A stretch of DNA of 62,815 bases, the filler included. It is 9 parts of 9 records of this genome, joined end to end, with 100 filler letters (N's around TTAATTAATTAA, not from the genome) between each part and the next. Parts side by side here need not be neighbours in the genome. Positions count along the whole stretch, not along the records: positions 31,889 to 37,256 come from SRR7504441_3959; 8 more parts are not named here. The stretch is one strand, 5' to 3'. Of this stretch, positions 14,617 through 57,303 are shown piece by piece. A program made the translations under genes and the position numbers. The notes beneath the pieces are model-generated. The model ran no database searches. It was not told where the DNA came from and worked only from the letters and a program-made list of their open reading frames with translations. Numbering within the stretch: position 1 is the stretch's first letter; each line of letters starts with the position of its first letter.

Positions 14617-14716
14617 NNNNNNNNNNNNNNNNNNNNNNNNNNNNNNNNNNNNNNNNNNNNTTAATTAATTAANNNNNNNNNNNNNNNNNNNNNNNNNNNN
14701 NNNNNNNNNNNNNNNN
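14617..14716. other. Artificial contig spacer (also at 23431-23530, 31789-31888, 37257-37356, 42362-42461, 49376-49475, 53085-53184, 57204-57303)
   Basis: Identical 100-nt N44-TTAATTAATTAA-N44 blocks carrying stops in all six frames. Confidence 0.99.
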
Positions 14717-23430: not shown

Positions 23431-23703
23431 NNNNNNNNNNNNNNNNNNNNNNNNNNNNNNNNNNNNNNNNNNNNTTAATTAATTAANNNNNNNNNNNNNN
23501 NNNNNNNNNNNNNNNNNNNNNNNNNNNNNNCGAAGCGGGCGTCACCTGGGGAAATTCCGATGCTTACTTTTCAGCGTCCACAACGGCAGCCGAGCCCGGT
23601 GTAGATAACGGAAGAGCGCCGGTGTGGCCCGAGGTCCGAGCCTGAGGCCTTGACCTCGCGCTTCATCAGATCAGCCCGCTGCGCATCGTGTTGAATCTGT
23701 GCG

Positions 23704-27112: not shown

Positions 27113-30100
27113 CTATGATCCCGAAGCTAGCTTATCTGCCTTTAGCTGCTTCAGCTCTAAAAATCCGACAACGTCATCAAATGTGACACCTTCGTCGCAA
27201 GCTAGCTTGCTAACGAGCGCCTCTACCTCCTCCTCAGCTTGTGCACCAGTCAGCCCCGTCTGTTGCGTGTAGATCCATTGTGCCAACTGGCGGAGCTCAC
27301 TGCTATTGAGCGCACCATCTGCGTTATTATCTAGCTGTTGAAACTTTGTGTGAGTCTCGGCCACGCTTTGGATCAGCTTGGTCGGGCTGCTGACCACCGG
27401 GGCGGCTTGCTCTTGCTGAGCCTGTCGGCGCGCAGTCTCTTTGTCCAGCTTTGCAAACCGGTCGTCCATAAACTCGGCAAACTCGTCGAAACTGATCTGT
27501 GCGTCGCTGTCTTTGTCCAGCTTGCGGACCAGCTTCTCGGCCTCGATCTGCCTTTGAGCCGGGTCGATCGGCTCATTCTTGGCGCTAAAACTGCTGTAGA
27601 GCAAGTCGACGAGTGCCCGGATCTCCTGGGTGCTCAGCTTGCCCGAATTGTCCACATCCAGCTCCATGAACTTCTGATACGCCCTCGATATCGGCTGGCT
27701 GCCCGAACTTCCTGAGACGTCCACTGGAGCGATCTCGGGCTGCTTGACCGAGGTGTGCACGGGCGAGATATGGTGGTCTTCGTTCAAATAATCGGTGTGC
27801 TTGTGCCCTTTCTTCCGTCGGTTGGCAGCCACCTTGGCCGCCTGGGACGCCCGCTTGACAAAAAATGCCTCAAATTCTTCGAAAATGATCTTGCCGTCGT
27901 TGTTCACGTCGAGCTTGTGCATCAGCTTACCTGCCTCGATCTTGACTTGATCATCGTCAAGCTGGTTATCTTTGGTCTGAAACGATTGGTAGATCCACAG
28001 CGCCATCTTTTCTGCCTCCTCTGTGTCCAGCCACCCGCTTCCGTCGGCATCCAACTGCTTGAACTTGCGCTCGGCAAGCGTCAGTGTGACTGCGGGCTGC
28101 GGTGCTGGCTCAAACTTGGCCTGGGCCGCGGCCAGCTGATCATACTGCTTGGCCTTCTCGCCAAAGTAGGCCACAAATTCGTCAAAGCTCACCTGGCTGT
28201 CGCCATCCAAGTCCATCTCCGCGAGCATCTTGCCAGTCTCTAGCTCCACTTGGGCTGCAGACAGCTCAAGCCCACCCGGCGCGAACCCTCCAAACACTCG
28301 CCGGCCGAGCTCGCACAATTCGTCGCCTTGGAGCTTGCCGGAGCTGTCCAAGTCGAGCTGTTCGAACATCAGCCGCACCTTGGTCGTGTCCAGCTCGGCG
28401 GCCTCGCGGCTCACAAATGCCTTGTACTCGGCGCTTCGCCGCATCAGCTGGTTGAACAGTGCCTCAAATGCTTCGAAGCTCAGCGCCTGCTCGCCAACCA
28501 GCCCAGCGATCATCCTGCTGTCCGCATCGGCCGCCTGGCTGCCCATCAGCTCGAGCAGCGCCTTGCTCAGCTGCTCCAGCTCGGCCCCGGCAAGCTCGTC
28601 TGACCGGTCTTGGTCCAGCTGGTTGAACAACTTGCGCGCTGCTGACAGCGCCGGCCCAGGGTCAACTGGCGGCGTGGTCTGCATGGCCGGAGCGGCTCGC
28701 TCTGCAGCAGCAGCCAGCGCTCTCGCGGCGAGCTGGTCCACCAGCCGGCGGTCATTGAAAAACCGCTCAAACTCGTCAAAGCAAATCTTCTTGTCACCGT
28801 TGGTGTCGATCTCGCCCACGAGCCGGTCCACCTCCGCTGCTGCCACTTGCGCTGGGGCCTCGCCAGTCTGGGAAACTGCCCAGCTGACCAGCTGCTCTAG
28901 CTCTGGCCCGGTCAGCTGGCCGTCCTTGTCGGCATCGAGTGAATCAAACACTTGGCGTGCCTCATTCAGAGGAAGCTTGGCTGCAGCAGCTGCCTTGGCC
29001 TGCTCCAGCTTGATCTTTTCAGCCAGCAGCAGCTGGATAGCATTGTCCAGCAGCAGCAAGCCCACCCCAGTCGGTTGGGCCGGGGGCTCGTTGTCTTTGA
29101 GCAAATCGTTCAGCAACAGCTCGCAGTCAGCCGCCTTCAGCTTGTCGTCAGCTTGGGGTCCCGCCATCAGCCCGACCAGCCACTCGGCGATCTGAGGCAG
29201 TTGGCTCGAGCTCAGCTCGGTCGCTTGGCCAGACAACTGGTCGAACTGGGCTCTGAGTGCCTTGGAGAGCACAGCACTGTTCTCAACCATCACTTCGAGC
29301 CTCCAGCTGACCATCTGCTCGGCAATAGCACCAAGCCGTTCAGTCACCGTGTGCGGCACCGCTGGTGCTGGTGCAGCAGTCTGCCTGTTGGCGGCGGCCA
29401 GCAGTTGGGCGAGCTGGGCGGACTCACGCATGAAGTACAGCTCGAACTCGTCCCAGCTTACCCTGCCGTCCCTGTCGGTGTCGAGCGCTCCAATCATCTT
29501 GCTCGTCTCTGCTGCCATCTGCGCCTCACTGAGCGGCTCTGCTGCCTGCCTTGCTGCCTGGCCGTGCAACCACTCGCTGAGCTCAGCCAGCTGCGATGGG
29601 CCGAGCGAGCCGGAGCCATCCAGGTCGAGCATCTCGAACACGGCCTTGGCATCGCTCTGGTCCACCCTGGCCAGCCCGGCCGCCCGCTGCATTGCCGCCA
29701 CCGTGCGCGCTTCGAACAGGAGCGGCCAAAGCTGCTCAAACTCAGCCCAGCTCATCCTATCAGGAGCCGCCCCAGCCAACACTGCAACTGCAGCTGGCAG
29801 ATCGCCAGACTCGAGGCACTGAGTCAGCACCAATTCCAGTGGCTTGTCCAACGGAATCCGGCCCACCAGCCCAGCTGGCTGGCTCTCTGCGGCCTGCCAC
29901 GCAGCTTTAGCTAGTTGCATCGCCTTGGGCAGCTCTGGAGGTGGCTCGGTTCGGAGCCCCGGCAGTGCTGCGGCTGCCTGCAGCATGCCCGCAAGTCTGT
30001 CGGCTGCAGGCGGCTCGAACAGCATCTGCCTGATCGCGTCGAGCAGCAGCGCAGAGCTCCGGTTCCACTTGGGTGCCGCCGCCTGCTCCTGCTCGGCCTC

Positions 30101-31788
30101 CTTCTGGGCCCCGTCACACTCGAGTGCCACTGTGGCCTCGGCCGCGCGCTCGTCTGGATCCTTGGCGGCCTCGGCCTGCGCAGCCACTAATCTGTCGGTC
30201 AGCTCCTGCAGCCGCGCCGAGCGCTCGCCAAACATCTTCTCAAACTCGTCGAAAGAGATCTTGCCATCGCTGTTCGTGTCAAACCGGCTGATCATGGCTT
30301 TGCTCTCGGCCTGCACAGCCGCCTGGTCTAGTGGCCCTCCGTCGACCTGCAACTGGCCGAAGAACCAGTGGCACATCTCGCCAAGCTCCTGCTCGCCCTC
30401 GAGAAACCCGGAAGAGTCCGCATCGAGCTCATCAAACTTGGCGCGCGCCTCAGACGGGGCCGAGAAGAAGCTGGCCGAGGCCGCGGCCACCTTCTTCTCG
30501 TATTCGAGCTGGTGCTGGTTGAGCTGCTGGTAGAAATGCTCAAACTCTGGGTAACTCACGCTCTCGGCCGGGAGCATCTGGCGCAGCTTGGACCCGTTCA
30601 GCCGGATGATCTGCTCCGCCGACTGTCCGGCGTCCTGCACACCGGCGAGCTTCTGAGAGAGCACAAACGAGACAAACTCGAACAATTTGTCGAGCTCGGC
30701 GCCCTCGAGCTTGTCGTTCTGGTCAGCGTCCAGCTCTAGCCACTTCTGCCGGACCGCTGATAGGACCTGCTCGGGCGGCGGGATGTCCACGATTGCAGGC
30801 GGGCTGGCCTTGAAGAACCCCTGGCTGGCCTGCTTCTGCCCGGCCAGCGCGGCCTCGATCTGGCCCAGCCGGCCGGCTTTCTCCTTGAAGAATCGCTCAA
30901 ACTCTCGGAACGAGATCTTGTTGTTGCCATCTGCGTCGATTGAACTCACAAGCTTGGCAGTCGCCCGCTCGAGCTCCTCTGGCGACAAGGGCTGCCCGCG
31001 CAGCTTGAGGCCCGCGAGCGCCCACTTGCCCAGCTCAGCCAGCTCGTCGCCGTCAATGTAGTGGGTCCGGTCCTGATCAAGCTGACTGAACTTCTCTTTG
31101 GCGGCCGACATGTCTGGAGGGTTGGCGGCCAGCTGCTGCTCGATCTGGAGATGCACCTGGAGCAGCTGGTCCCACAGCTTCTCAAACTCGCCCCAGCTCA
31201 GCTGCAACCCGCTCAGCAGCAACAGCCGGGCTGACTTGCCTTGTCCGTGGGCAGCTGCTGCATGATCGTGTGCGCGTCCTTGGTGACCTCCTGTTCAGCC
31301 AGCCCTGGTCGGGCCACCTGCCTGTGAGTGTCAGCTGCGCCCAACGGGGCCGAACGAGCCTTCCGGAGCACAAACTTGGCCATTTCGGCCAGCTCGCCGC
31401 CCTCGAGTGCGCCCGAGCCGTCCACATCCAGCTTGTTGAACTCGACTCGCGCCTCCGAGAGCACTTCCGGCGGGATGCTGACTGTGGCTGGGTCAAGCGA
31501 CGCGAGCACTGGCTCCGGGATCCCCTGCAGGATCACAGGTGAATCCGGCAGTGCCTTGCTGCGTACAGTGATATCGGCGATCTGAGATTCAATCTTCATG
31601 TGCTTGAGCCGATCAGCGATCTCTGCGAGCATGTTTGTCTTGTTCAGAAAGTACCTGCAGCCAATCAGCTGCGCCCGCGCGGTCGGCCACCGTTCAAACT
31701 CCTCAAACGAAATCTTCTTGTCCCCATCTGTATCCATCGCCTGCACCAGCCTGGCCCGCTATCAGTCACTCTCCAAGCTCAGGGCCAC
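27113..31788 (-). CDS. Very large multi-EF-hand protein, 5' truncated
   Basis: More than 1500 aa made of repeated modules KF..LD.D.SG.L...EL / D.N.DGKISFDEF, roughly 20 EF-hand-like loops. Confidence 0.88.
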
Positions 31789-31888
31789 NNNNNNNNNNNN
31801 NNNNNNNNNNNNNNNNNNNNNNNNNNNNNNNNTTAATTAATTAANNNNNNNNNNNNNNNNNNNNNNNNNNNNNNNNNNNNNNNNNNNN

Positions 31889-34800
31889 GACTTCCAGGAG
31901 TGGTTCGTTCAAGATATCAACAAGCTGCTGGTCTCACACCCACCGGACAAGGTCGAAAAGTACAAGTTGCCAGACGGCACTGAAGCAAAAAGACCGTTCT
32001 GGACGCTCCCGAAGCGGCTGCCAGCAGCAATGCAGTTCGATCCATCGGATGAGATGTGCCAGAGCTTCATCTGGAGCGCTAGTCACCTGTATGCCAAGAT
32101 GTTTGGACTCGACATGGCCAACTGTCAGCCCCAGAGCCCAAATGATCCGGCCTCTGCAGCACAACTAGCCGCCGAATTTGATCGTGGCATGTTCGACGAG
32201 GAACCCCAGAGAACTCAAGACGAGCTCGTGAGAGAGCTGACTGAGGCGGCTGCGTCTAGCCAAATTGCGCTGGGCGAGGAAACGATGCTGTTCGAGGACG
32301 CATTCGAGAAGGATGACGATAGCAACTTCCATGTTGCCTTCATCACTGCAAGCTCCAATCTACGAGCTCGCTTGTACAAGATCAAGGAGGAAGATGCTTT
32401 CCAAACAAAGCTGATTTCTGGGAAGATCATTCCCGGTGCTGCTAGGTCTCTTGCTTTCTGATTGGGGCGGTCAGCCATCGCAACTACAACGTCTGTAGTC
32501 TCAGGGCTAGTTGTCATCGAACTGATCAAAATCGTCCAAGCCAGGTGACTAAGCTAAGCCTGTGCCGACAATACTTGGTTACAGGCAAAAGGACCAGATG
32601 CGTGATGCGAATGTGAACCTAGCGCTGCCGACTCTGATCCTGTTGGAGCCGGACAATCCGCGGAAGAATAAGCTCGGAAGCCTAGAGTTCACTGTCTGGG
32701 ACAAGATTGAACTCGAGGCCGGTCCAGGCATCACACTGCTACACCTGCTGCAAAGGTTGGCGGCCATGACTGGGCTCAAAGCAAGCGATGTGTATCGTCT
32801 TGAAACAGGCGACTGCGTATTCAAGGTCAACATTAGCTTCATTTCCTCGTGACTGTTGGCTTGTGGCAGGGTGGTACTCTTTACCAAGGTCTGCATGGCT
32901 GGAAGCTGGAGAAGACTGTGGCGGAACTGCTCGAGCTGGACCCGACCTCCACGGAGACTGTGGACCTGCGGGTGGTGTTCAAGACACCAGAGGGCGAAGA
33001 CGTGGAGCTGCCAGCAGACGTGGAGGCTCCACCGGTGCGGCTGGGGTTCCGCAGAGGTGGGTATGTTGTTTGTGGCGACCCTTGGAACGCGGACACCATA
33101 CCGATACTTTGTCTGCTGACCGAGGCCAAGATCGAGTATAAGCTCGAGCCTGCGCGCGCTGGCGGGCAAGTGGTCTTCCAGGATGCAGATTTCGAGGTCC
33201 ATGGATGCCAGGCGGCCATGAGGTATATTGCTGCCAAGCACGCACTGGACGACTTTTATCCTAGCGAACCAGTGCTCAGGGCCAAGGTGGACATGGCTAT
33301 GGAGTTCAGCCAGACCGTGCTTCAGCCGATGATCAAGCAGCTGCTTTTACCTGTTCTCGAACATGAAGGCCCCTCCCCATCGTGGGTGACCCAAAAGCAA
33401 TGGAATGCTGACAAGGAGGATCTATGCAAACAAATTGCCAATAGAGAGTGGCTGCCCTGGACCAGCGGCCAGCTGGTGACTGGACTGCCACACGCATCGC
33501 TCGGTGACATTACTCTTGCAATTCCCTTGGCGCTGTTTGAAATGATGCATCCGGCGCTCCCGGTGCTCGACTCGGATGAGCTCAGACAGTTCCTGGCTGC
33601 AACCCGTGCAGCATGTAAAAAGTGGATGCTCTACATGGCTCGTCCAAAGGTGGTTTACTCCGGATACGAGCTCAGCGTCCGGACAGACGACCGCTTACAG
33701 AAGATGGCTCTGCCGAGGGAGGCTACCGTTGCCCAGTTGATTGCCAAAGCCGAGGAGCTATCTGGCGTGCCTGCATCTCAGATTGCGATCAGGTGCGGAG
33801 GGTCACTCCCTGGGCGGCCTGTGGTCAACCTTATAGGCTTTGCTCACTGCCCTGCTACCGATCAATCGACGCTGCTCATGGACGCCGGAGTTGGCCCTAC
33901 TGATGTCGTTTTCGTGACCACCGCAGGGACAACCGATGGAGCTGCACCAACTGCTGTGCCGCATGTCTTACAAACAGGGTCGGGTCAACCACTACAGCGG
34001 CTCCCTACAGGGCAGCTGCAGTGTCCAGTATGTTTTAAATGGATGGCAGCTCATCTAGTCGCCACTCATGCCGAACAATGCGAGCCGGTCAACGAGCCAG
34101 TAGCCGCGCCACCTGGCGAGCTGACTCACGAGTCGGGTACAATTTCTGGAGCTGACGCAGAGGAACCTGTGGTATGCGTAGACGCACAGCTGCCAACAGC
34201 CCTGCTCCAGCGATCGTACACCTCGTACATGAAAGAGAAGATCTCTGAGGGCAAAATTTCGCAGGTTGTGCAAATTGACATGAAGAAGGCGGGGCATGTT
34301 TACTTCCGGGACTCCGACACAGACGCCCGGAACATCACTTATATCGCAAAGCATGTAGATCAGCTTCTCACTGGCCTGCCGCTTTCGCGGCATGGGTCAA
34401 TCTTCGTGGCCCAAGATAAGTCCAAGGAGCACTTTCTGAAGGCATTAATCATCGGACCAGTTGGCTCGCCGTACGAGAACGGTTGCTTTGAGTTTGACAT
34501 CATGATCCCGGTGCAGCCTGTGGCTGGTGCGGCCTGTGTCTAATAATACAGGGCAGGCTCAGTATCCCTCCAGTCCGCCCCTTGTGCAGCTCCGAACCAC
34601 CGCCCAGGGTGCTGTAAGGTTCAACGCCAATCTGTATGCCAACGGTAAGCTGCCGCAAGAATCGCGAGATGAGGCTTGCGTGTTTGTGTGCGCAGGGAAA
34701 GTCTGCCTATCATTGCTTGGCACCTGGTCTGGACCTGGGTGGGACAAAGAGAGATCGACGCTGCTCCAGGTGTTTTGTAGAACTGATGGTGGCCGAGGCG

Positions 34801-37146
34801 ATCCTGACTGAGGGCAGGTGGTTGAGAGTATACAACTCAACATTATGATCGGAGAACCAGTCTCGGAGCACCCCTGGTTCAACGAGCCTGGTTACTCCGA
34901 CAACGATTGCCCTGAACACAATGCCGCCAGTATGACAGCACACGGTATACTCTAGAGATTCATCTTCTTATTTCGCCCAAATTCGCAGGCAAGGCATGTA
35001 GCCAAGAGTACAATCGGCGGATGCGCAGATGCACTATGAAGGCAGCTATGATTGACATCCTCCGTTCGCCGCCAATGGGGTTTGAAGAGGTGCCATCGTG
35101 ATCTACACCGTGAATGACTGCTGGCTGTGAAGGTTATTTATGAGCACTTTCGCGCGCATGCCGACAGAATCATTTCTCAAGTACAAGGCTGGGAACGGGA
35201 AGGCGCCGAGGACTCGCCTGTACGTGCGATTATGGCCAAAGTAGGTCAGGCATCCACTTCTGAGCAGCTTACGACGGTGCTCATCGAAGCGACTGAAATA
35301 CTGAACCAGTTCGAGATCGCCGGAGGGGATGAGGCCACGAGAAATGCATTAAGACAGCAGATGGAGAACATCAAAGAGAAGATCAAGACTGTTGAGGCAG
35401 CGGAGGAGGTAGCTTTGATCGAGCAAGCCAAAACATTCAGAGAACGGGTTGAGGCACTTTCTACAGCACTGACCGGACTTGCTCCTGGCGATGACTTGCT
35501 TGGGAAGTTGTTCACTGCGCCTGGCGTGACTCCAGTTGCTGCTGTGACTGGCGACGCTGAGCCGTTGGACGACTCTGAGCCAGATGATGGGCCTGTGGCC
35601 GACCCAGAGCAGGTGGCTAGATTGTCTAGATAACCTTGGCTGGCATGCATCGATGCTAATGTCTGTAGGTGGCGCTAGTCCAGAGCTTCACGGGCAGCAA
35701 ATATAGCGACGAGGTGGTGGCCAGTCTGCTGCTCCATCACCCTGCCGGTGGGAACATCGAGCAAGTCACGAACTTGATCTTTGACGGGGTGGATCCAAAG
35801 CACTGGCTCGACATGGCGTCGGGTCTTGGCGGACAGGACAAAATCGACCCCAAGAATCGGATCGAGGAGTGGGTGTGCTTCTGCGGCCAGCTGCACTTGT
35901 TTTCTGAACTCCGGTATCCGGCCATCCCACAGTGCTGGCTGCCTAATAGCAGGGTTAGCCTTAGGATTCGCTGAGTACAGGCGCCAGGTGTCAGATTTGC
36001 CAACAGGAGCGCAAGCCAGATTCTCAAGTGATTGCTCGCCAGGCCCAGCCCAACGAGGTGGCTCGAATTCTGAATTCGGAGCTTGAGCCACTCAAGAAGG
36101 CGCTCGACTCGGCCGAGCACCTGCTCGAGATAGTCAACGGCTCCGGCACTGTGACAGCCAATACTTCATGGGAATTTCAGCCAGCAGGATATCATGCCTA
36201 TGGCGCTGCTGCCAATTGGTATGTCTTTTCTGGTGCAATGAATGACGCGCTTGAGGCTGCTTGGGTAGCGCTGCAGCAACCAGAAAGCGCAGCTCCCAAT
36301 AAAATTGAGATCACTTTGGACGATCAGCAGTACACCTGCGACCTCGTGGCTATGTCAATGAGCTCTGTCGCGGATGCACAATACACTTCTTTGGTAAGGA
36401 GGCGAAATTTAAGCAGCTGGGTGAGCGAGCTGATGGAGAGGGCCAAGGTCTCCAAGGAGCAGGTGACTCTCCTCCACCAGCAGCTGAAAGACAAGAGAGA
36501 TGAGAAAGCTGCCGCAGCAACCGAAGCAGAACAGGCCGCGCTACAACTGACTGATGGGTGGCCGATTTGTCCGCAATGCACCTTCCGGAATGCAGAGGAT
36601 GCGGCCAAGTGTAATATCTGTGGGTATCAACCTATGGGGATCGAAACGAAACCACCAGTAACTTGCCCCTCCTGTGGGTACATACCGGATCCAACTCACC
36701 CGAGCTACAATCCAGATGCGACACATTGCTTCAACTGCGGGATTGCGCTGGCCACCGATGGCCAGTGGTCATGCCCCTCGTGCGGAGTTTTGTGCCCCGA
36801 GACCGCACAGTCTTGCTCGCAGTGTTACAGTGTCAATCCGAGCCATCCAGCAGCATTATGGGTGCACGGGATGGACGCGCAGGCATTCCAGCCTGGCCAT
36901 GATCCGTATCACAGCTACTCAGGCTCCTCTGTGGAACAAAGAGCCAACCAAGCTGTTGATGCACAAGGGCCGTACATTCCAGAGACTGTCAGCACAAAGG
37001 AGCTCGCAACAGAGCTCACCGAGATACTAGTTGGGCTGAAGGAAGGGAGACGACCAGAGCGTTCAAACGAGAATCAAGCAGTGCCACCACCGCACTCAGG
37101 CTATGATGCACATGAAGCTAATATGTCAGATTTCGATGATTACTAG
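31889..37146 (+). CDS. UBA6-like E1 - GST-like - UBL - UBZ - BIRC6-type E2 - UBA-like - ZnF - WWE - RanBP2/NZF fusion protein, 5' truncated (1590 aa visible)
   Basis: Removing 10 GT-AG introns (32436-32474, 32545-32584, 32826-32869, 34511-34556, 34645-34695, 34770-34817, 34945-34988, 35090-35132, 35613-35668, 35914-35987) gives one open frame of 4773 nt ending in TAG. E1 motif [10 protein letters not shown]...KIIPAIATTT; E2 motif [20 protein letters not shown]. Confidence 0.88.
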
Positions 37147-37356
37147 ATTATGGCTGCGTATACCATTAATTAATTACATGCGCAAATATTTTATTTGACT
37201 AGTTTTATTTTAATTAGTCTTTAGGATCTTAGGTTAGGTTAGGTATAATAGATGAGNNNNNNNNNNNNNNNNNNNNNNNNNNNNNNNNNNNNNNNNNNNN
37301 TTAATTAATTAANNNNNNNNNNNNNNNNNNNNNNNNNNNNNNNNNNNNNNNNNNNN

Positions 37357-39831
37357 AAGTCGAAGGACAGGATCTGCGCCAAGTGCGGGGAAGCGATCGC
37401 GGACTATGACGAGAACGGCAAGCTGGACTGGACCACCGACGCCAAGGGCAACCAGTTCCACGACCGATGCTTTGCGTGTGAGGTGTGCCGTCTGCCGATC
37501 AAACACGTGGGGGACGGCAAGTACATCAATGACAAGGAGGGCAAGCCGTATTGCCACGGGTGCTACGAAAAGACCTTCTGCGACCCGTGCTTCTGCTGTG
37601 GACTGCCGCTGGTGAACGAGCAGGTTGTGCTGTGGAAGACCAAGAAGTTCCACGTGCCGTGCTGGAAGTGCACCGAGTGCAGCAGCGTGCTCTCCACGCC
37701 AGAGAACCCGGATGCACCGATGGCTCGCGAGAACGAAGCCGGGAAACCGATCTGTGACAACTGCTGGAGCGGCCAGAAGTTCCAACGGTGCTTCAAGTGC
37801 TCGGAGCTGATAGATGGCGAGGAAGGGCCGACTTGCCTCTACACGAATGCCTACTATGAGAAATGCCAGCCGTGCCTCAATCAGGTGGTCCACCGGCTGG
37901 AAGCGCCGGACTGCGTGCTCCCGCAGGGCGCGTATCCGTTCCATGGCGACTGTGCGCTGTGCTACATTTGCCGGGTCGAGTTCACAGACGAGTCTGACCC
38001 CGGCTCGCTCTGTGTGCTAGAGGACGGCTCCGGGCCATTCTGCACCAAGCACGCCACCCCCGAGGCCCAGGCTAAGTGGACCGCCTTGGACTGTGTTCGC
38101 CGCAAACTGCAGCATATTCGCTTCCGAGGAGTGCTGTCTGAGGCAGCCAAGGGAGGCGGGAGCAAGGAGATGCAAGCGGGTGCTACTCGCGGGATTGTCA
38201 TGAAGGAGTTTTACCAGACCGAGGTGTACTATTTACAGCAGCTCAACATCCTGCTCCAGGGGTACCTGGTGCCATTCCGCGACCGTGGCGACTACGTGAT
38301 GGTAGAACGGCGCTCGGACTCACTCCACATTCAGGGCCGGGGACCCGGGGACGGAGTCAAAGCAGCGGAGGAGTTTTTAGAGTTTCTTCGCGTGGCAAAG
38401 AGACTGATTGAAAGCCACGAGAGTCTGGCCGAACAGCTGCGAGTGGCTGTGGAGGCAATGATTGGCGAGGATTCTGATTTATCTTCGGTGATATGCAAGG
38501 CCGCAGACATCGTACGTGAGGGATATCCATTCTTTCTCAGTCGGCTTGGAGTGGTACAAGCCAACATCGGGTTCCAGAGGCGTAAGAATCAAGCCTTCAA
38601 GAAGGTGTCGCCCCTGTGTGAAGTGGGCAGCTAGGGTTGACTGCTGGGCCATGCAGGCGTATGACGAGATCTCGAGGGAGCCGTACATGCACGATGGCGA
38701 GCCAGTCAAGAAGCAGTCCTTTCAATCGTATGCGATTGCGCCACTGCAGGTTTGTGCATTGTATGCAAAGCGACCAACGCTGATTCTTTCTGTGTTCAGC
38801 GGGCAGTGAACTACAAAGCATTTGCCGACCGGCTGCTCAAGAACACATCAAAGAGCCACGTCCGGTACAAGGCAATGCAAGAGGCTGCACAAATGATTGA
38901 CGCAGCCAACCAACAAATGGACAGGCGGTCAGTCGAGTACGATAAGCTGGTCAAATTCCAGAAATCCATCGAGGTCGGATGGGGAGGCCGCTACTGCAAC
39001 TTCCTCTCTCTTGATCGATCAATTGTCAAGCAAGGATTTGTGAGGCTTCTGCAGGGTGTTGGTGAAGACCTTGTACACCTGAGCCTCATGACGGACCTAC
39101 TTGTCATACTGACTCCATATGGCAAAAACGCTGGATACCCGACCTACACTGTCAAATGTGATGTGAATGGCCAGGCTGACTATGACAGAATCCAGGAGCC
39201 CTGCTTCTGCGAAATTAAGAAGAACCAGCTGAGTATTTATACCCAAGAGGGAGCTAGTCAGCCAATCGACGCAGCCAGACCGCTGATGCCTGATCAGGTG
39301 GAACTCACCGACGATGGCAGAATCTGCGTTGACCCCAGGACCACGGCGGGCGCAGTGTATCTGAGCCACGAGCGTGTTGACCAGATGCTTGAGTTGTTCT
39401 GCTGGATGCAGGCGTCGATAAAGGCGCACGAGGCCACCCAAGCTGAGAGCAAAAAGCAGGGCTGGTACACTTACCTCTATGACTTGAAACTGGCAGAAAT
39501 CAGCCTGAAATGCATAAAGGACAGCCAGGGCAAGTCCTCAATCCTGGACATGGAAGTCCAAAGAGAGGAAGAACCACTCACTCCCAAGCAGGTCAAGAGC
39601 ATGCCTCCCGATGCTGTCGTCGATCACTTTGAGATTCTGGCTGAGCTGCTGCATTTCCCAGCAGTGACGCTAAACATGGGTGTGGAGCAAAAGAGAAAAA
39701 TGCTCGCTGCAAATATTGGGGTGGCGAGATCTCGGAAGATGCCAAATTTGGTGCTGCAATTTCAACATCATGAAGCTGAGAAGTGGCTCGAGATGTTTAC
39801 GCAGGTGGGGATGGATGTGCCCAAGCGATAA
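37357..39831 (+). CDS. Multi-LIM + DH(RhoGEF)-PH protein, 5' truncated
   Basis: About four LIM-type Cys/His repeats (CAKC..FHDRCFACEVC..YCHGCY), DH motifs EFYQTEVYYLQQL and IAPLQ|RAVNY..LLKNT, then PH-like strands. Confidence 0.8.
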
Positions 39832-42167: not shown

Positions 42168-42461
42168 TTCAACAAAACGGCCAGAAATTTGGACAGCACT
42201 CGAGCACTGAGAGAGAGAGAGAAAACTGACAACAGTGAGCAGTCGTGCAGTGCAGTCCCGACGGCGCGACGGCACTGTGCGCGAGCACGGTACTAAGTGC
42301 CCTGAGTGTACCGGTAAGCACGGCAGCACGGGGTTGTGATCAATGGCTAAACTATTGTGCTNNNNNNNNNNNNNNNNNNNNNNNNNNNNNNNNNNNNNNN
42401 NNNNNTTAATTAATTAANNNNNNNNNNNNNNNNNNNNNNNNNNNNNNNNNNNNNNNNNNNN

Positions 42462-49375: not shown

Positions 49376-49475
49376 NNNNNNNNNNNNNNNNNNNNNNNNN
49401 NNNNNNNNNNNNNNNNNNNTTAATTAATTAANNNNNNNNNNNNNNNNNNNNNNNNNNNNNNNNNNNNNNNNNNNN

Positions 49476-52400
49476 TTGGTTTTGATTTGGTCCAGAGACC
49501 CACAGCACTGACGCTATTGCACGGGCCACAAGGAATGGTGAATGCGGAATGATAAAACCGCTGAGCTGTGATGCAGTAAACACTCCCATGTCTGTTGAAC
49601 TGACCGTTGCAGGTGCCAGCCCACCATTTGTCAACGCTCGCAGGGAAGTGTCGAGTAGAAACTGAACATGCATGTCGAATTGATGAGCCTTATCAGCGGC
49701 GAAACCACCATGCTCGTGAGCCAAACCATGCTGCAGCTTCTCTCCAAGGAAATACCCAGCTTGTACTTCTGCAGGCATGTTGGCAGTAACACATTGCACA
49801 CGCCACCGGTAGGGGGGCATATGCCTACCACCACCGGGGGGGCAGCGACCAACCAAGAGAGTTGACCATAGCATGTCTGGCGACTGAGTACCGCCAGCAA
49901 GGCTGCACCCCATGCCCGATACTCTGATCACCAGGTGATCCCGCGGGGCCAGTGCATTCTCCAGCTGCTCTTTACCACCTCGCTGCCCCCGGTCGTGCGC
50001 TTTTGCACCATTGCCAATTGATACTTGGGATACAATAAAGGCTGCTAGCTCTGAGACAGTAGAGTGCTCCAGAAATAGGACGGCAGACAGTTTGACGGCA
50101 GAAATCCCCAGGGCACGCTTGAGCGCTTTAGATAACGAGGTGACAGCTTTGGCAGCTTTAATTGAGTCGATTCCAGCAGACAATAGCGAGTCCTCTGCTG
50201 TCAAAGCCATATTCCCAGTGATTTGTTGCACCTCCTGTAGGGCGACTTGCTCGACGATTCTTTGTATGATTCCACACTTGTGCGTGCTGGTGGACTCAAG
50301 AGAGTCCAGCTGCGTTTGAGAACTGTCTGTTCTCTGGAGAGCTGGAGTTCGCTCTCCTGCGTGACTGATCACCGGGTCTCTGATCACATCTATATTACTC
50401 AGGTCCTTCCACAAACGGTCGACCTCTGACGTTATCCAGGCGGTCAAAGAGCCGGCCATGTGGTCCTCCGGAATGGAATGGCTGAGTACATTGAATGCAA
50501 TGTAGTGTGCACTTTCCCTGGGCTGACTCAGCTTCATGGTCTCCGAAAGGCTGTGTCGTGTCCGGGACGGCTGCGCCAACTTCAGTAACTCAGAATACCA
50601 GAGCTCGCTTGGACCTTCAAAAATGCATGTGATGCGCAGCGTGTTCACAAGATCGCCAAAACTCTCACCACTGAACTCGTCTTCAGTGCCGGCAAGTGCT
50701 GTTGTGTCCAGTGTCATTTCCAATTCCTCTGCGAGTTCTAGTGCATAGTCTGGAAAGAGAACCTTGATGGCGATACAAACTTGCATGTCAACTGGATCTG
50801 CCGCCGAAGACTCTGGTTCTACAACAGCGTCGAGCAGGCCAAGACCGTAATGGACAAAGTTGCGGCAGGCTTGAAGTGTCAATTTATGCTGGTCTTCCTT
50901 GCGAGTCTCTACAAGGCTGCACAACCGGTCAAGAATACCCAGTGTACTGACAGCAATACCCAATCTCGTAACGTTCATAGTTTGTAGTGCGACCTCGAAG
51001 GACCTTGTCCCCCAGTTGAAGACCACAGGGACGTTCTTGAACGTAACCTGTGCGAACGGTGTCTTGCGCAATCCCAGCGTGGACCACCGGCGATCCACCG
51101 TAACACCCTTTGACCTCCCATCCACGAGAACTAGCCTCCATTCGTTGTTTTCATCGAATGCTGAAACTACGTACCAGTCTACGGGCAGTCCATCGCCGTA
51201 TTTTGCTAGGCCGCAGCCAAATCCTCCCCAGTATTTTGTCCCAGACAGCTGCCGATCTTTAATCCTCGCATGGATGCTCTTCATGGCGCTTCCAGGGGTC
51301 TCCTCTACTAGCATGTAAGAGCCTAAAACTCTGTCTTTAGCGAAATCAGCACACAGGCACTGTTGCTGCTCTACGAACATCAGAGGTATGCGGCTGAGTG
51401 TATTTTGATATCCTACCATCTGTGCAAAGTCAGTATCCTGCTGAATGAGCGCATATACAACACGGAAGAACTGCCTAAGACTGCAATGCCTGTTGTACAG
51501 CAGCCCTAAGCAGCTGGAGCTCGTTCGAACGCTGTCAAGGCATCGCTGCCACTGCGCTGGGCTGGGGGTCTCGTTGTAACTTTTCAGGGTGGGGATGATG
51601 CCTGGCGATGTGTCTGAGATGACCTGTGTCCCAATTCGACAATACTCTGTCACCAGACTGCTCTCTGGCGAACCCACCGACGTTGTAATTCCAAGAGATT
51701 TAAGCCACTGGCCGCGGTTCCACTGCAGCAATGCCTGGCTGCGTAGAAATGATAGCATGTCGGCGTCATTCGCCACAAATTCGGCCACCCTCAAGATTGC
51801 AACTGTGCTTCCTGAGGTAGACTGGCACTTATCCACAGACTGGATCGGGCCTGATGCGCCAAGCCCATCTGCTAACCATTCAGGCTCCACGTCGGCGGCC
51901 ATCTTTCTGGATCTAACCATCGGATCTTCGAGTCTCCGCACCCGCTCTAAGTTGCCAGCGTGCTGAGAGTACTTGCTCTCTTTGTTGACTCGCCGTGACC
52001 CGAAAAAGTTAGACCCGCGACGTATCAGGGAGATTGACAGCTCGAATAGCGCGTGCACCCACGCCAGATGCTGCGCCGGAGACAGACTGGGTAAGTCTGT
52101 GCCGGCAGATCGCTTGAGCAGTCGGTGAAACAGCCGAACCAAGGTTTGCAGTTGTGCTGAAAATAACCTGAACTGGCTGACTTGGTTGAGCGCTTGATCT
52201 GGCATTACCTTTCGTGTAGGGGCCCACTCCAACAGGTCCGCCTGGAAGCCTTGGACAATGTCCATTGCCATAAAAACATGCTGTAGGTTCGGATCTCGAG
52301 AGTCCAAATGGTGCTGTGGTGCAATTGCAAAGCACGTGGCTTGTTGCTCGTCGCATTGGGCGTATTCGGCGTTCACAGCTGTTGCAGACAGTGCATCTAC

Positions 52401-53084
52401 TTTGTCCTCTCTTAACCTGGACGCCAGCACATGCAGCAGTGCTGGCGTATCGTCGCTGCTTAGAGCCGCAACCCAACCTGCAACGCGCCCGAACATCCAA
52501 TCTGAGTTTTCAGTGCCAGCTGCAGCTGCCTGTTGCTGCTGCTTCCCAAGCCAATCCAAGAAGCCTTGCTTGCAGGCATTCCGCCTGATCTTGCCGCTGG
52601 TGGTCTTGGGAATCGTGCGCTGCTTCAGCAGTAATATACTGTGGCATCGCAACTGGTTATCACTCGAAATGGTGGTCTGGACTGAAGTCATGATCTGCTC
52701 GAGCTCCGATTCGCTGTGTTTACCTCTGACCTCGGCCACCAGCACCAGCATCTCCTCACCTGCAACGTCCACGCTGAACGCCGCTGAGCAGCCGGGCCGT
52801 AGATTCGAGTTGCTCTCAGCGGAATGCTCGATGTCTTGCGGATAGATGTTTCGGCCACAAATGATGATCAGATCTTTCAGCCGGCTGCACACGTACAGCT
52901 CACCCTGGTGGATGAAACCGAGGTCGCCCGTGCGCAAGTACTCGATGCTGGTCGGGTCGCCCTGAATGGTGGCCTGGAAGGTGTCTCTGGTGAGTTCGTC
53001 CCTGCCCCAGTAGCCCTGCGCCTTGCTCGGGCTTGATAAACAGATCTCGCCCAAGTATTGATCCGGTTGCCGGACTAGCTGGCC
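49476..53084 (-). CDS. Type I PKS-like megasynthase fragment: FAAL - acyl-CoA dehydrogenase-like - ACP - KS (both ends truncated)
   Basis: One ORF spans the contig. FAAL: GYWG, LRTGDLGF, RLKDLII.GRNIYPQDIE, IPKTTSGKIRR. ACAD: LSGTKYW, TLGLR, VTFKNV, RLGIA, IFEG. ACP: GIDSI. KS: VSGMGC.LAGG...LW. Confidence 0.85.
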
Positions 53085-53184
53085 NNNNNNNNNNNNNNNN
53101 NNNNNNNNNNNNNNNNNNNNNNNNNNNNTTAATTAATTAANNNNNNNNNNNNNNNNNNNNNNNNNNNNNNNNNNNNNNNNNNNN

Positions 53185-57203: not shown

Positions 57204-57303
57204 NNNNNNNNNNNNNNNNNNNNNNNNNNNNNNNNNNNNNNNNNNNNTTAATTAATTAANNNNNNNNNNNNNNNNNNNNNNNNNNNNNNNNNNNNNNNNN
57301 NNN

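Follow-up and report, generated by a model that had tools for sequence, protein, structure and literature searches.

Ubiquitylation is usually taught as a relay of three enzymes, activating (E1), conjugating (E2) and ligating (E3), in which the E3s give specificity. The E2/E3 hybrids BIRC6 and UBE2O, which carry recognition domains on the E2 polypeptide itself, already bend this rule. Single polypeptides that combine E1 with E2 activity are known from bacteria, in CBASS Cap2 and in the enzymes of Bil-type operons, which are built on a minimal ThiF-type E1 and are not known to have SCCH, FCCH and UFD domains or a reader tail. As far as the available text of the literature goes, the ubiquitin-system E1-E2 fusions among the matches listed were bacterial only, and human BIRC6 is described there as an E2-E3 chimera charged by UBA6, not UBA1. 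Here we describe a gene for a eukaryotic-type E1-E2 fusion that fills one contig (SRR7504441_3959, positions 31889-37256) of a window of 62,815 nucleotides, the term window meaning the whole stretch of DNA analysed; the 5' end of the gene is cut off at the contig edge, and the stretch was traced, at small shares, to marine and aquatic metagenome runs only. Downstream of the E2 the gene encodes a long tail, in which an earlier sequence-only reading had recognized a UBA-like module, a WWE-like domain and several zinc fingers, proposed as ADP-ribose and ubiquitin readers that stand in for an E3. We find the tail of this fused E1-E2 to be a genuine series of modules under selection, and on balance we consider it probable that it serves as the ubiquitin-directed, E3-independent targeting part of a single-chain E1-E2.

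The reference orthologue for splicing and for the identities given below is P0017, an open reading frame (ORF) of 2282 amino acids (aa) from a transcript assembly in EukProt; the other relatives compared were P0001 (569 aa), P0011 (553 aa), P0002, P0003, P0005 and P0007. Since P0017 bears on a single ORF the FCCH, 4HB, ThiF (E 5e-50), SCCH and UFD domains of an E1 and the UQ_con domain of an E2 (E 4.7e-18), the fusion is no artefact of this contig, and judging from these domain matches it is genuine, as the sequence-only reading had held, with an E2 of the BIRC6 type. The contig itself holds only the second half of the SCCH domain, the end of the adenylation domain and the UFD; its SCCH portion is recognized by Pfam UBA_E1_SCCH (E 4.2e-34), and its PDB matches are UBA1, UBA6 and UBA7 (E 1e-21 to 1e-12), which do not separate a UBA1 affinity of the fused E1 from a UBA6 affinity. 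In the E2, the N-terminal flank and the start of the core match the BIRC6 UBC (E 3.1e-10), a family profile matches the BIRC6 C-terminal extension (E 2.9e-09), and the core is 87% identical to that of P0017. The likeness to BIRC6 and UBE2O lies in a UBC core and flanking helices that match BIRC6 best and in recognition domains carried on the E2 polypeptide, the differences being that an E1 is also fused here, that NZF, WWE and zinc ribbons take the place of BIR or other domains, and that BIRC6 is a much larger protein. Unlike the bacterial fusions, which likewise combine E1 with E2 activity on a single chain, this protein has, as seen in its orthologue P0017, the full eukaryotic set of a UBA1/UBA6-type E1. 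One chain here bears an E1 of the full eukaryotic type together with a BIRC6-type E2 and a conserved reader tail.

The gene structure was derived by an intron search in which every GT..AG pair within a range of 10-20 nt either side was tried for ten suspected introns, with no coordinates of the sequence-only reading used as input, and a pair was retained if the frame stayed open and its junction scored best against P0017. The script independently returned, to the nucleotide, the three introns that had been proposed around the start of the tail, at 35090-35132 (43 nt), 35613-35668 (56 nt) and 35914-35987 (74 nt), together with seven others of 39-51 nt; the ten introns, 39-74 nt long and all GT-AG, lie within 32436-35987. 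Loss of the 56-nt and 74-nt introns joins exons 35133-35612, 35669-35913 and 35988-37143, and the tail motifs quoted by the sequence-only reading were all found in the frame and at the places it had assigned to them. The spliced coding sequence has 4770 nt and encodes 1589 aa with no internal stop, and its product aligns end to end with residues 673-2282 of P0017, with 863 of 1575 columns identical (54.8%) and the same ..DDY end. By part, the modules share 46-75% of their residues with P0017, and the loops that link them 21-24%.

If these two introns were not removed, the frame would terminate at TAA 35631-35633 and at TGA 35972-35974, and it could be argued that the tail is not made, with transcripts that end at the TAA or retain its intron and a downstream ORF that is either a relic or a separate gene. 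In keeping with this, the single well-fitting contig from the RNA libraries, a 172-nt piece that matches 33119-33290 with one mismatch, belongs to an upstream exon and cannot show splicing. However, both P0001 and P0017, the latter from transcripts, run continuously over the three junctions named above, with equal residue counts and no extra residues, and the frame downstream of the introns keeps 51% identity with P0017 as far as the ..DDY end that both share. Moreover, DNA contigs from a pair of independent metagenome runs show 23 listed differences from the window (under the spliced model, 15 synonymous, 4 non-synonymous and 4 intronic), and all five variants in the tail exons (5/5) are synonymous third-position changes. 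A tail that is never made is therefore extremely improbable. The DNA contigs of two metagenome runs also carry one extra C behind 34523, inside the intron 34511-34556, where an indel is tolerated.

The reader that can be assigned with confidence in this tail, and the only one, is an NZF. According to the available text of PMC11372445, an NZF is defined by four zinc-binding Cys, a Trp before the first Cys and an Asn lying between Cys2 and Cys3, and it binds the I44 patch of ubiquitin through a T-F pair after the second Cys and a hydrophobic residue inside the second C-x-x-C. All of these residues are found in the window, including T198-F199 and I210; W191, C194, C197, N201, C208 and C211 are invariant in a four-sequence alignment, the T-[FY] pair is preserved in P0001, P0002, P0003, P0005, P0007 and P0017, and identity to P0017 is 60%. 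In a search of the PDB with the four-sequence profile, the best matches were TRABID NZF1 (E 2.1e-06), YAF2 (9.6e-06), Vps36 (8.2e-05) and RYBP (8e-05), next Npl4 (4.7e-04) and HOIL-1L (2e-03) and then HOIP, so that ubiquitin-binding NZFs outrank RanBP2 and Nup153 (0.07-0.4). A Pfam DZR match covers residues 194-236 (E 4.3e-07), and when all six reading frames of the window were translated, the strict NZF pattern turned up a single time. The finger with the TF motif, which the sequence-only reading had singled out as ubiquitin-binding, thus has the canonical residue set, and its likeness to the known domains predicts that it binds ubiquitin at the I44 patch. It shares with the NZFs of TRABID (NZF1), Npl4, Vps36, TAB2, HOIL-1L and HOIP all the defining residues, including the TF motif and the hydrophobic position, and differs from them in a Trp one residue farther from the first Cys and, in two orthologues, in a C-x3-C second pair.

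The second module of note has a WWE fold, which we regard as settled on the strength of a structural model. Window positions 36040-36468 were modelled with AlphaFold2 (AF2) from a five-sequence alignment (pLDDT 81.5; model residue i is ORF residue i+17), and the model has strands at 42-47, 61-62 (short), 88-93, 96-101, 106-109 and 116-123 and a helix at 65-79, the WWE fold being a six-strand half barrel covered by a helix (PMC11269756, available text). In Foldseek, the 20 matches listed for ranks 1-23 were all WWE entries, with a template modelling (TM) score to the target of 0.79-0.82; in VIA-align, ranks 1-19 were all WWE (Z 7.4-10.7, the next match having Z 5.0), the top one being HUWE1 6MIW (Z 10.7, root-mean-square deviation, rmsd, 2.0 Å, 69/69 HUWE1 residues aligned); and the nearest named clusters in the ESM Atlas were WWE (score 0.90). 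W61, W77 and E89 are invariant in the four-sequence alignment, and from their order and the fold they may be matched to the eponymous Trp, Trp and Glu. Sequence profiles gave a mixed picture: Pfam WWE (PF02825) scored 17.1 bits on the window (E 0.0072), below the gathering score of 21.1, and at the homologous positions 17.5 bits in P0001, 22.2 in P0002, 39.0 in P0011 and 22.1 in P0017, with no match at E <= 0.1 in P0005, so that three of the six family members reach the gathering score; no WWE chain of the PDB was found by sequence with the family profiles or with P0011 alone. The WWE-like call of the sequence-only reading is thus borne out by structure, and the absence of a WWE fold, which that reading had named as a refutation, does not apply; the hidden Markov model (HMM) reaches its gathering score in P0002, P0011 and P0017 and not in the window itself.

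The nearest solved folds are those of HUWE1 and TRIP12 (Z 10.7, rmsd 1.8-2.0 Å, 69-71 residues aligned), and HUWE1 resembles this enzyme also in having a WWE and other small readers (in HUWE1, UBA and UIM) attached to a ubiquitin-transfer enzyme; sequence identity is 16%, and HUWE1 is a HECT enzyme whereas here the reader sits on an E1-E2. RNF146 (Iduna) follows with Z 10.1 over 72 aligned residues, again a reader beside a ubiquitin writer, although its RING is absent here. These relatives, together with DTX1, bind ADP-ribose or nucleotides, and it has to be considered whether the WWE domain binds poly-ADP-ribose (PAR) or mono-ADP-ribose, so that the enzyme would ubiquitylate ADP-ribosylated proteins like RNF146, in this case without an E3. 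In all solved E3 WWE complexes, as reported in the available text of PMC11269756, the adenine is held by two hydrogen bonds from a conserved Gln and by the stacking of an aromatic residue, and Tyr and Arg contact the phosphate, the ligand contacts of HUWE1 including Trp1619 and Gln1667; for RNF146, Tyr107, Tyr144, Gln153 and Arg163 are the four residues reported as essential (PMC10793466, available text). We mapped these residues from the ends of the VIA-align ranges, in which model residues 40-126 correspond to RNF146 101-172 (72/72 chain residues) and 41-123 to HUWE1 1614-1682. RNF146 Tyr107 and HUWE1 Trp1619 then fall on F63, RNF146 Tyr144 on Y115, Gln153 on M124 (HUWE1 Gln1667 on S125) and Arg163 on S134, and the register is supported by the fact that both aromatic anchors fall on conserved aromatic residues.

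Among six family members, the adenine-stacking position reads F/F/Y/F/Y/H (aromatic in 5/6) and the position of Y115 is Tyr in 5/6, and farther on, in the last strand, two Arg are invariant, all of which agrees with an ADP-ribose ligand. The adenine Gln position, however, reads M/L/M/M/M/L (Gln in 0/6, with Gln as the following residue in 1/6), and the Arg163 position reads S/S/S/S/H/A (Arg in 0/6). Half of the tetrad that marks the PAR- and ADP-ribose-binding subclass (RNF146, HUWE1, TRIP12, DTX) is therefore absent, only the two aromatic positions being kept, and with neither the key Gln nor the key Arg in place, canonical recognition of the adenine and phosphate of ADP-ribose is unlikely. 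The fold as such is no guarantee of PAR binding, as the WWE domain of DDHD2, reported in the available text of PMC9404506 to lack it, illustrates; and no PARP or other WWE was found among 91 ORFs of at least 150 aa (from 244 of at least 100 aa) on the other contigs, which are unlinked and hence weak evidence. Taken together, this is probably a WWE domain without the usual ADP-ribose grip, and ubiquitylation directed to ADP-ribosylated proteins is unlikely. A clear WWE fold that has lost half of the ADP-ribose tetrad also cautions against annotating every WWE as a PAR reader.

The sequence-only reading had proposed that the readers replace E3 substrate recognition in either a PAR-to-ubiquitin writer or a chain amplifier, possibly in stress or antiviral defence. 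With a canonical NZF and without the Gln and Arg of the WWE pocket, the chain amplifier is the half that fits better than the PAR writer. We favour a targeting tail because the sole assignable reader is an NZF and because E2/E3 hybrids bring their own recognition domains. On this basis the conserved, non-catalytic tail would be the enzyme's own targeting part, as in the hybrids BIRC6 and UBE2O: the NZF would dock the enzyme on proteins that already bear ubiquitin or hold the acceptor ubiquitin, the docking might be helped by a UBZ4-like finger that lies upstream of the E2, chains could be built or extended without a separate E3, and the WWE-fold domain would give a second specificity, probably other than canonical recognition of ADP-ribose. 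The UBZ4-like finger, which lies between a ubiquitin-like (UBL) domain and the E2, may indeed be an extra ubiquitin reader. Should the tail direct the enzyme to ubiquitin, E3-free chain building would have a minimal system of natural origin, one that deserves attention for its mechanism and evolution and as a tool. In its most specific form, the proposal would be of a self-contained eukaryotic E1 and BIRC6-type E2 of marine protists with its own readers (NZF, UBZ-like and a re-purposed WWE), acting as an E3-free amplifier or editor of ubiquitin marks, in which the change of the WWE pocket Gln to Met or Leu lets the domain read a ligand other than ADP-ribose; this we put forward tentatively, as a possibility that is rather doubtful in its full extent.

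Several points weigh against a targeting role. In the two RNA and two DNA runs, none of the introns is spanned by RNA from this organism, be it a read or a contig, and the catalytic Cys of the E1 and the rest of its adenylation domain lie off the contig. Within the NZF, the Trp stands three residues before the first Cys where two is usual, and the Pfam HMM Zn_ribbon_RanBP matches at E 2.6e-05 with 23.8 bits, below its cut-off of 27. Single NZFs bind ubiquitin weakly (PMC11372445, available text), and one NZF alone may be insufficient for targeting. As to the WWE, the residue mapping is taken from the first and last aligned residues, assumes no indel from Y115 on and depends on a five-sequence AF2 model, and a phosphate might yet be reached by R137 and R138, which are invariant and lie on the last strand.

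The same modules could also act on the enzyme itself, binding its own UBL or the thioester-linked donor ubiquitin so as to gate the transfer from E1 to E2, hold a closed E2~Ub or auto-inhibit. A UBL and a UBZ4-like finger do lie between E1 and E2 in the same polypeptide, the modules are spaced by long helical linkers, and the cassette of helical module, first finger and WWE recurs in P0011 behind a different N-terminal region and so behaves as a module in its own right, able to work inside one molecule or across two. A complex prediction for the internal UBL and the NZF (score 0.01) gave no answer and is not evidence either way. There is, however, no sign of an intramolecular contact, and in the E2/E3 hybrids, the closest class, the extra domains are used for substrates according to the available text. 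A purely regulatory tail is accordingly quite improbable in our view. P0011 further contains a second WWE-like stretch, and no E2 was seen in its available part. It opens with a stretch of about 25 residues nearly identical to the start of P0017 and resembling a library or adaptor artefact, so both sequences are probably 5'-incomplete.

Upstream of the NZF and WWE, the proposed identity of the first tail module was not supported. The sequence-only reading had called it UBA-like; the nearest Pfam family is UBA_Rad5, at E 0.039 and 14.5 bits against a cut-off of 27, and its model, with helices at 2-8, 14-23 and 30-34 (and at 43-50), is of low confidence (pLDDT 58.9). With this model, Foldseek found nothing at E <= 0.001, the ESM Atlas gave no usable match, and the best match of the wide VIA-align search had Z 3.0, with no UBA among the matches listed. 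P0001, P0005, P0011 and P0017 have no UBA-clan match at E <= 0.1, and the PDB profile search returned no UBA chain. We therefore treat 35669-35818 as a candidate helical module without family assignment. The finger that follows is indeed split by the 74-nt intron, as had been proposed, and is well conserved: W68, C70, C72 and G73 are invariant, the second Cys pair is kept in P0001, P0005, P0011 and P0017, and identity to P0017 is 73%. It has His in the RanBP2 Asn position (Asn in P0005), and neither Pfam nor the PDB profile gave a RanBP2 match.

The two further C4 fingers expected after the NZF are also present. Finger 3 lies partly under the DZR match already mentioned, and finger 4 has Cys where its relatives carry Asn or Ser, the Asn forms of P0003 and P0007 having Pfam Zn_ribbon_RanBP matches (residues 131-156 in P0003). 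Fingers 1, 3 and 4 are all conserved Cys4 ribbons without the ubiquitin-binding TF motif. The protein ends in a conserved motif of about 64 residues, closing with acidic residues and a Tyr (..DDY), which is common to P0017 and P0003-P0007 and 54% identical to P0017; it belongs to no Pfam family, the sole match being PKI at E 0.13. Acidic-aromatic ends are ligands of CAP-Gly domains. A word-based search found no longer relatives of the tail, and among metagenome contigs of JGI, scanned once with alignment A5 (187 pattern matches) and once with A6 (128), no relative was confirmed. The coordinates of all features are collected in Table 1.

Table 1. Parts of the E1-E2 fusion gene and of its modular tail, with the linkers between contigs; positions count along the whole window.
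Feature	Position	Strand	Description
E1 3' part (SCCH second half, adenylation-domain end, UFD start)	31892-32825	+	Exons 31892-32435, 32475-32544, 32585-32825
Long exon, E1 UFD to E2 start	32870-34510	+	Uninterrupted 1641-nt ORF; 49% identical to P0017 over 98% of length
GST-like stretch	~33170-33560	+	PDB GST matches, E 0.055-0.2
UBL	~33650-33922	+	OTU1_UBXL; 21.8 bits in P0017
UBZ4-like finger	~34019-34081	+	C-x2-C-x11-H-x3-C; zf-WRNIP1_ubi E 0.042; PDB WRNIP1 UBZ E 0.57; conserved in P0017
BIRC6-type UBC (E2) core and first C-terminal helices	34310-35089	+	Five exons; catalytic-Cys exon 34696-34769
Exon 9, helical/coiled region after E2	35133-35612	+	Ends ..DPEQ; collinear with P0001 and P0017; 53% identity to P0017
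Intron	35613-35668	+	56 nt, GT-AG; in-frame TAA 35631-35633
Small conserved helical module (earlier "UBA-like")	35669-35818	+	Q5, H24, P25, N29, F38 and W46 invariant in four sequences
Finger 1	35870-36000	+	W-x-C-x-C-x10-C-x2-C, split by 74-nt intron; RanBP2-like spacing but C-x-C; no TF motif
Intron	35914-35987	+	74 nt, GT-AG, phase 2, divides Arg codon; read-through stop TGA 35972-35974
Long helix, finger 1 to WWE	36001-36156	+	Model residues 4-34; 60% identity to P0017
WWE-fold domain	36157-36408	+	ORF residues 57-140; W61, F63, W77, E89, Y115, M124, S134, R137-R139; 54% identity to P0017
Helical/coiled linker after WWE	36409-36555	+	Helix from model residue 124; conserved RRR[DN]L..WV..L motif
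Canonical NZF	36559-36621	+	W191, C194, C197, T198, F199, N201, C208, I210, C211
Finger 3, zinc ribbon	36664-36738	+	C-x2-C-x17-C-x2-C; DPTHP.Y.PD loop; conserved in P0002 and P0017; 68% identity to P0017
Finger 4	36766-36825	+	W-x-C-x2-C-x3-[C]-x6-C-x2-C; RanBP2-type spacing; regex match
C-terminal motif	36952-37143	+	QGPYIP..T.EL..EL..L..LK.G .. PPHSGYD .. acidic .. DY-end; stop codon 37144-37146
Linkers	14617-14716, 23431-23530, 31789-31888, 37257-37356		N44-TTAATTAATTAA-N44 filler
Linkers	42362-42461, 49376-49475, 53085-53184, 57204-57303		N44-TTAATTAATTAA-N44 filler

The window consists of nine unlinked contigs joined by N44-TTAATTAATTAA-N44 linkers, and genes that neighbour each other across a linker are not genomic neighbours. 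On other contigs than that of the E1-E2 fusion we observed a 1393-aa open frame rich in EF-hand pairs (27116-31294, minus strand), a LIM-domain gene (37357-38631, plus strand) and a frame with ketosynthase and carrier-protein domains, similar to a polyketide synthase (49476-53084, minus strand).

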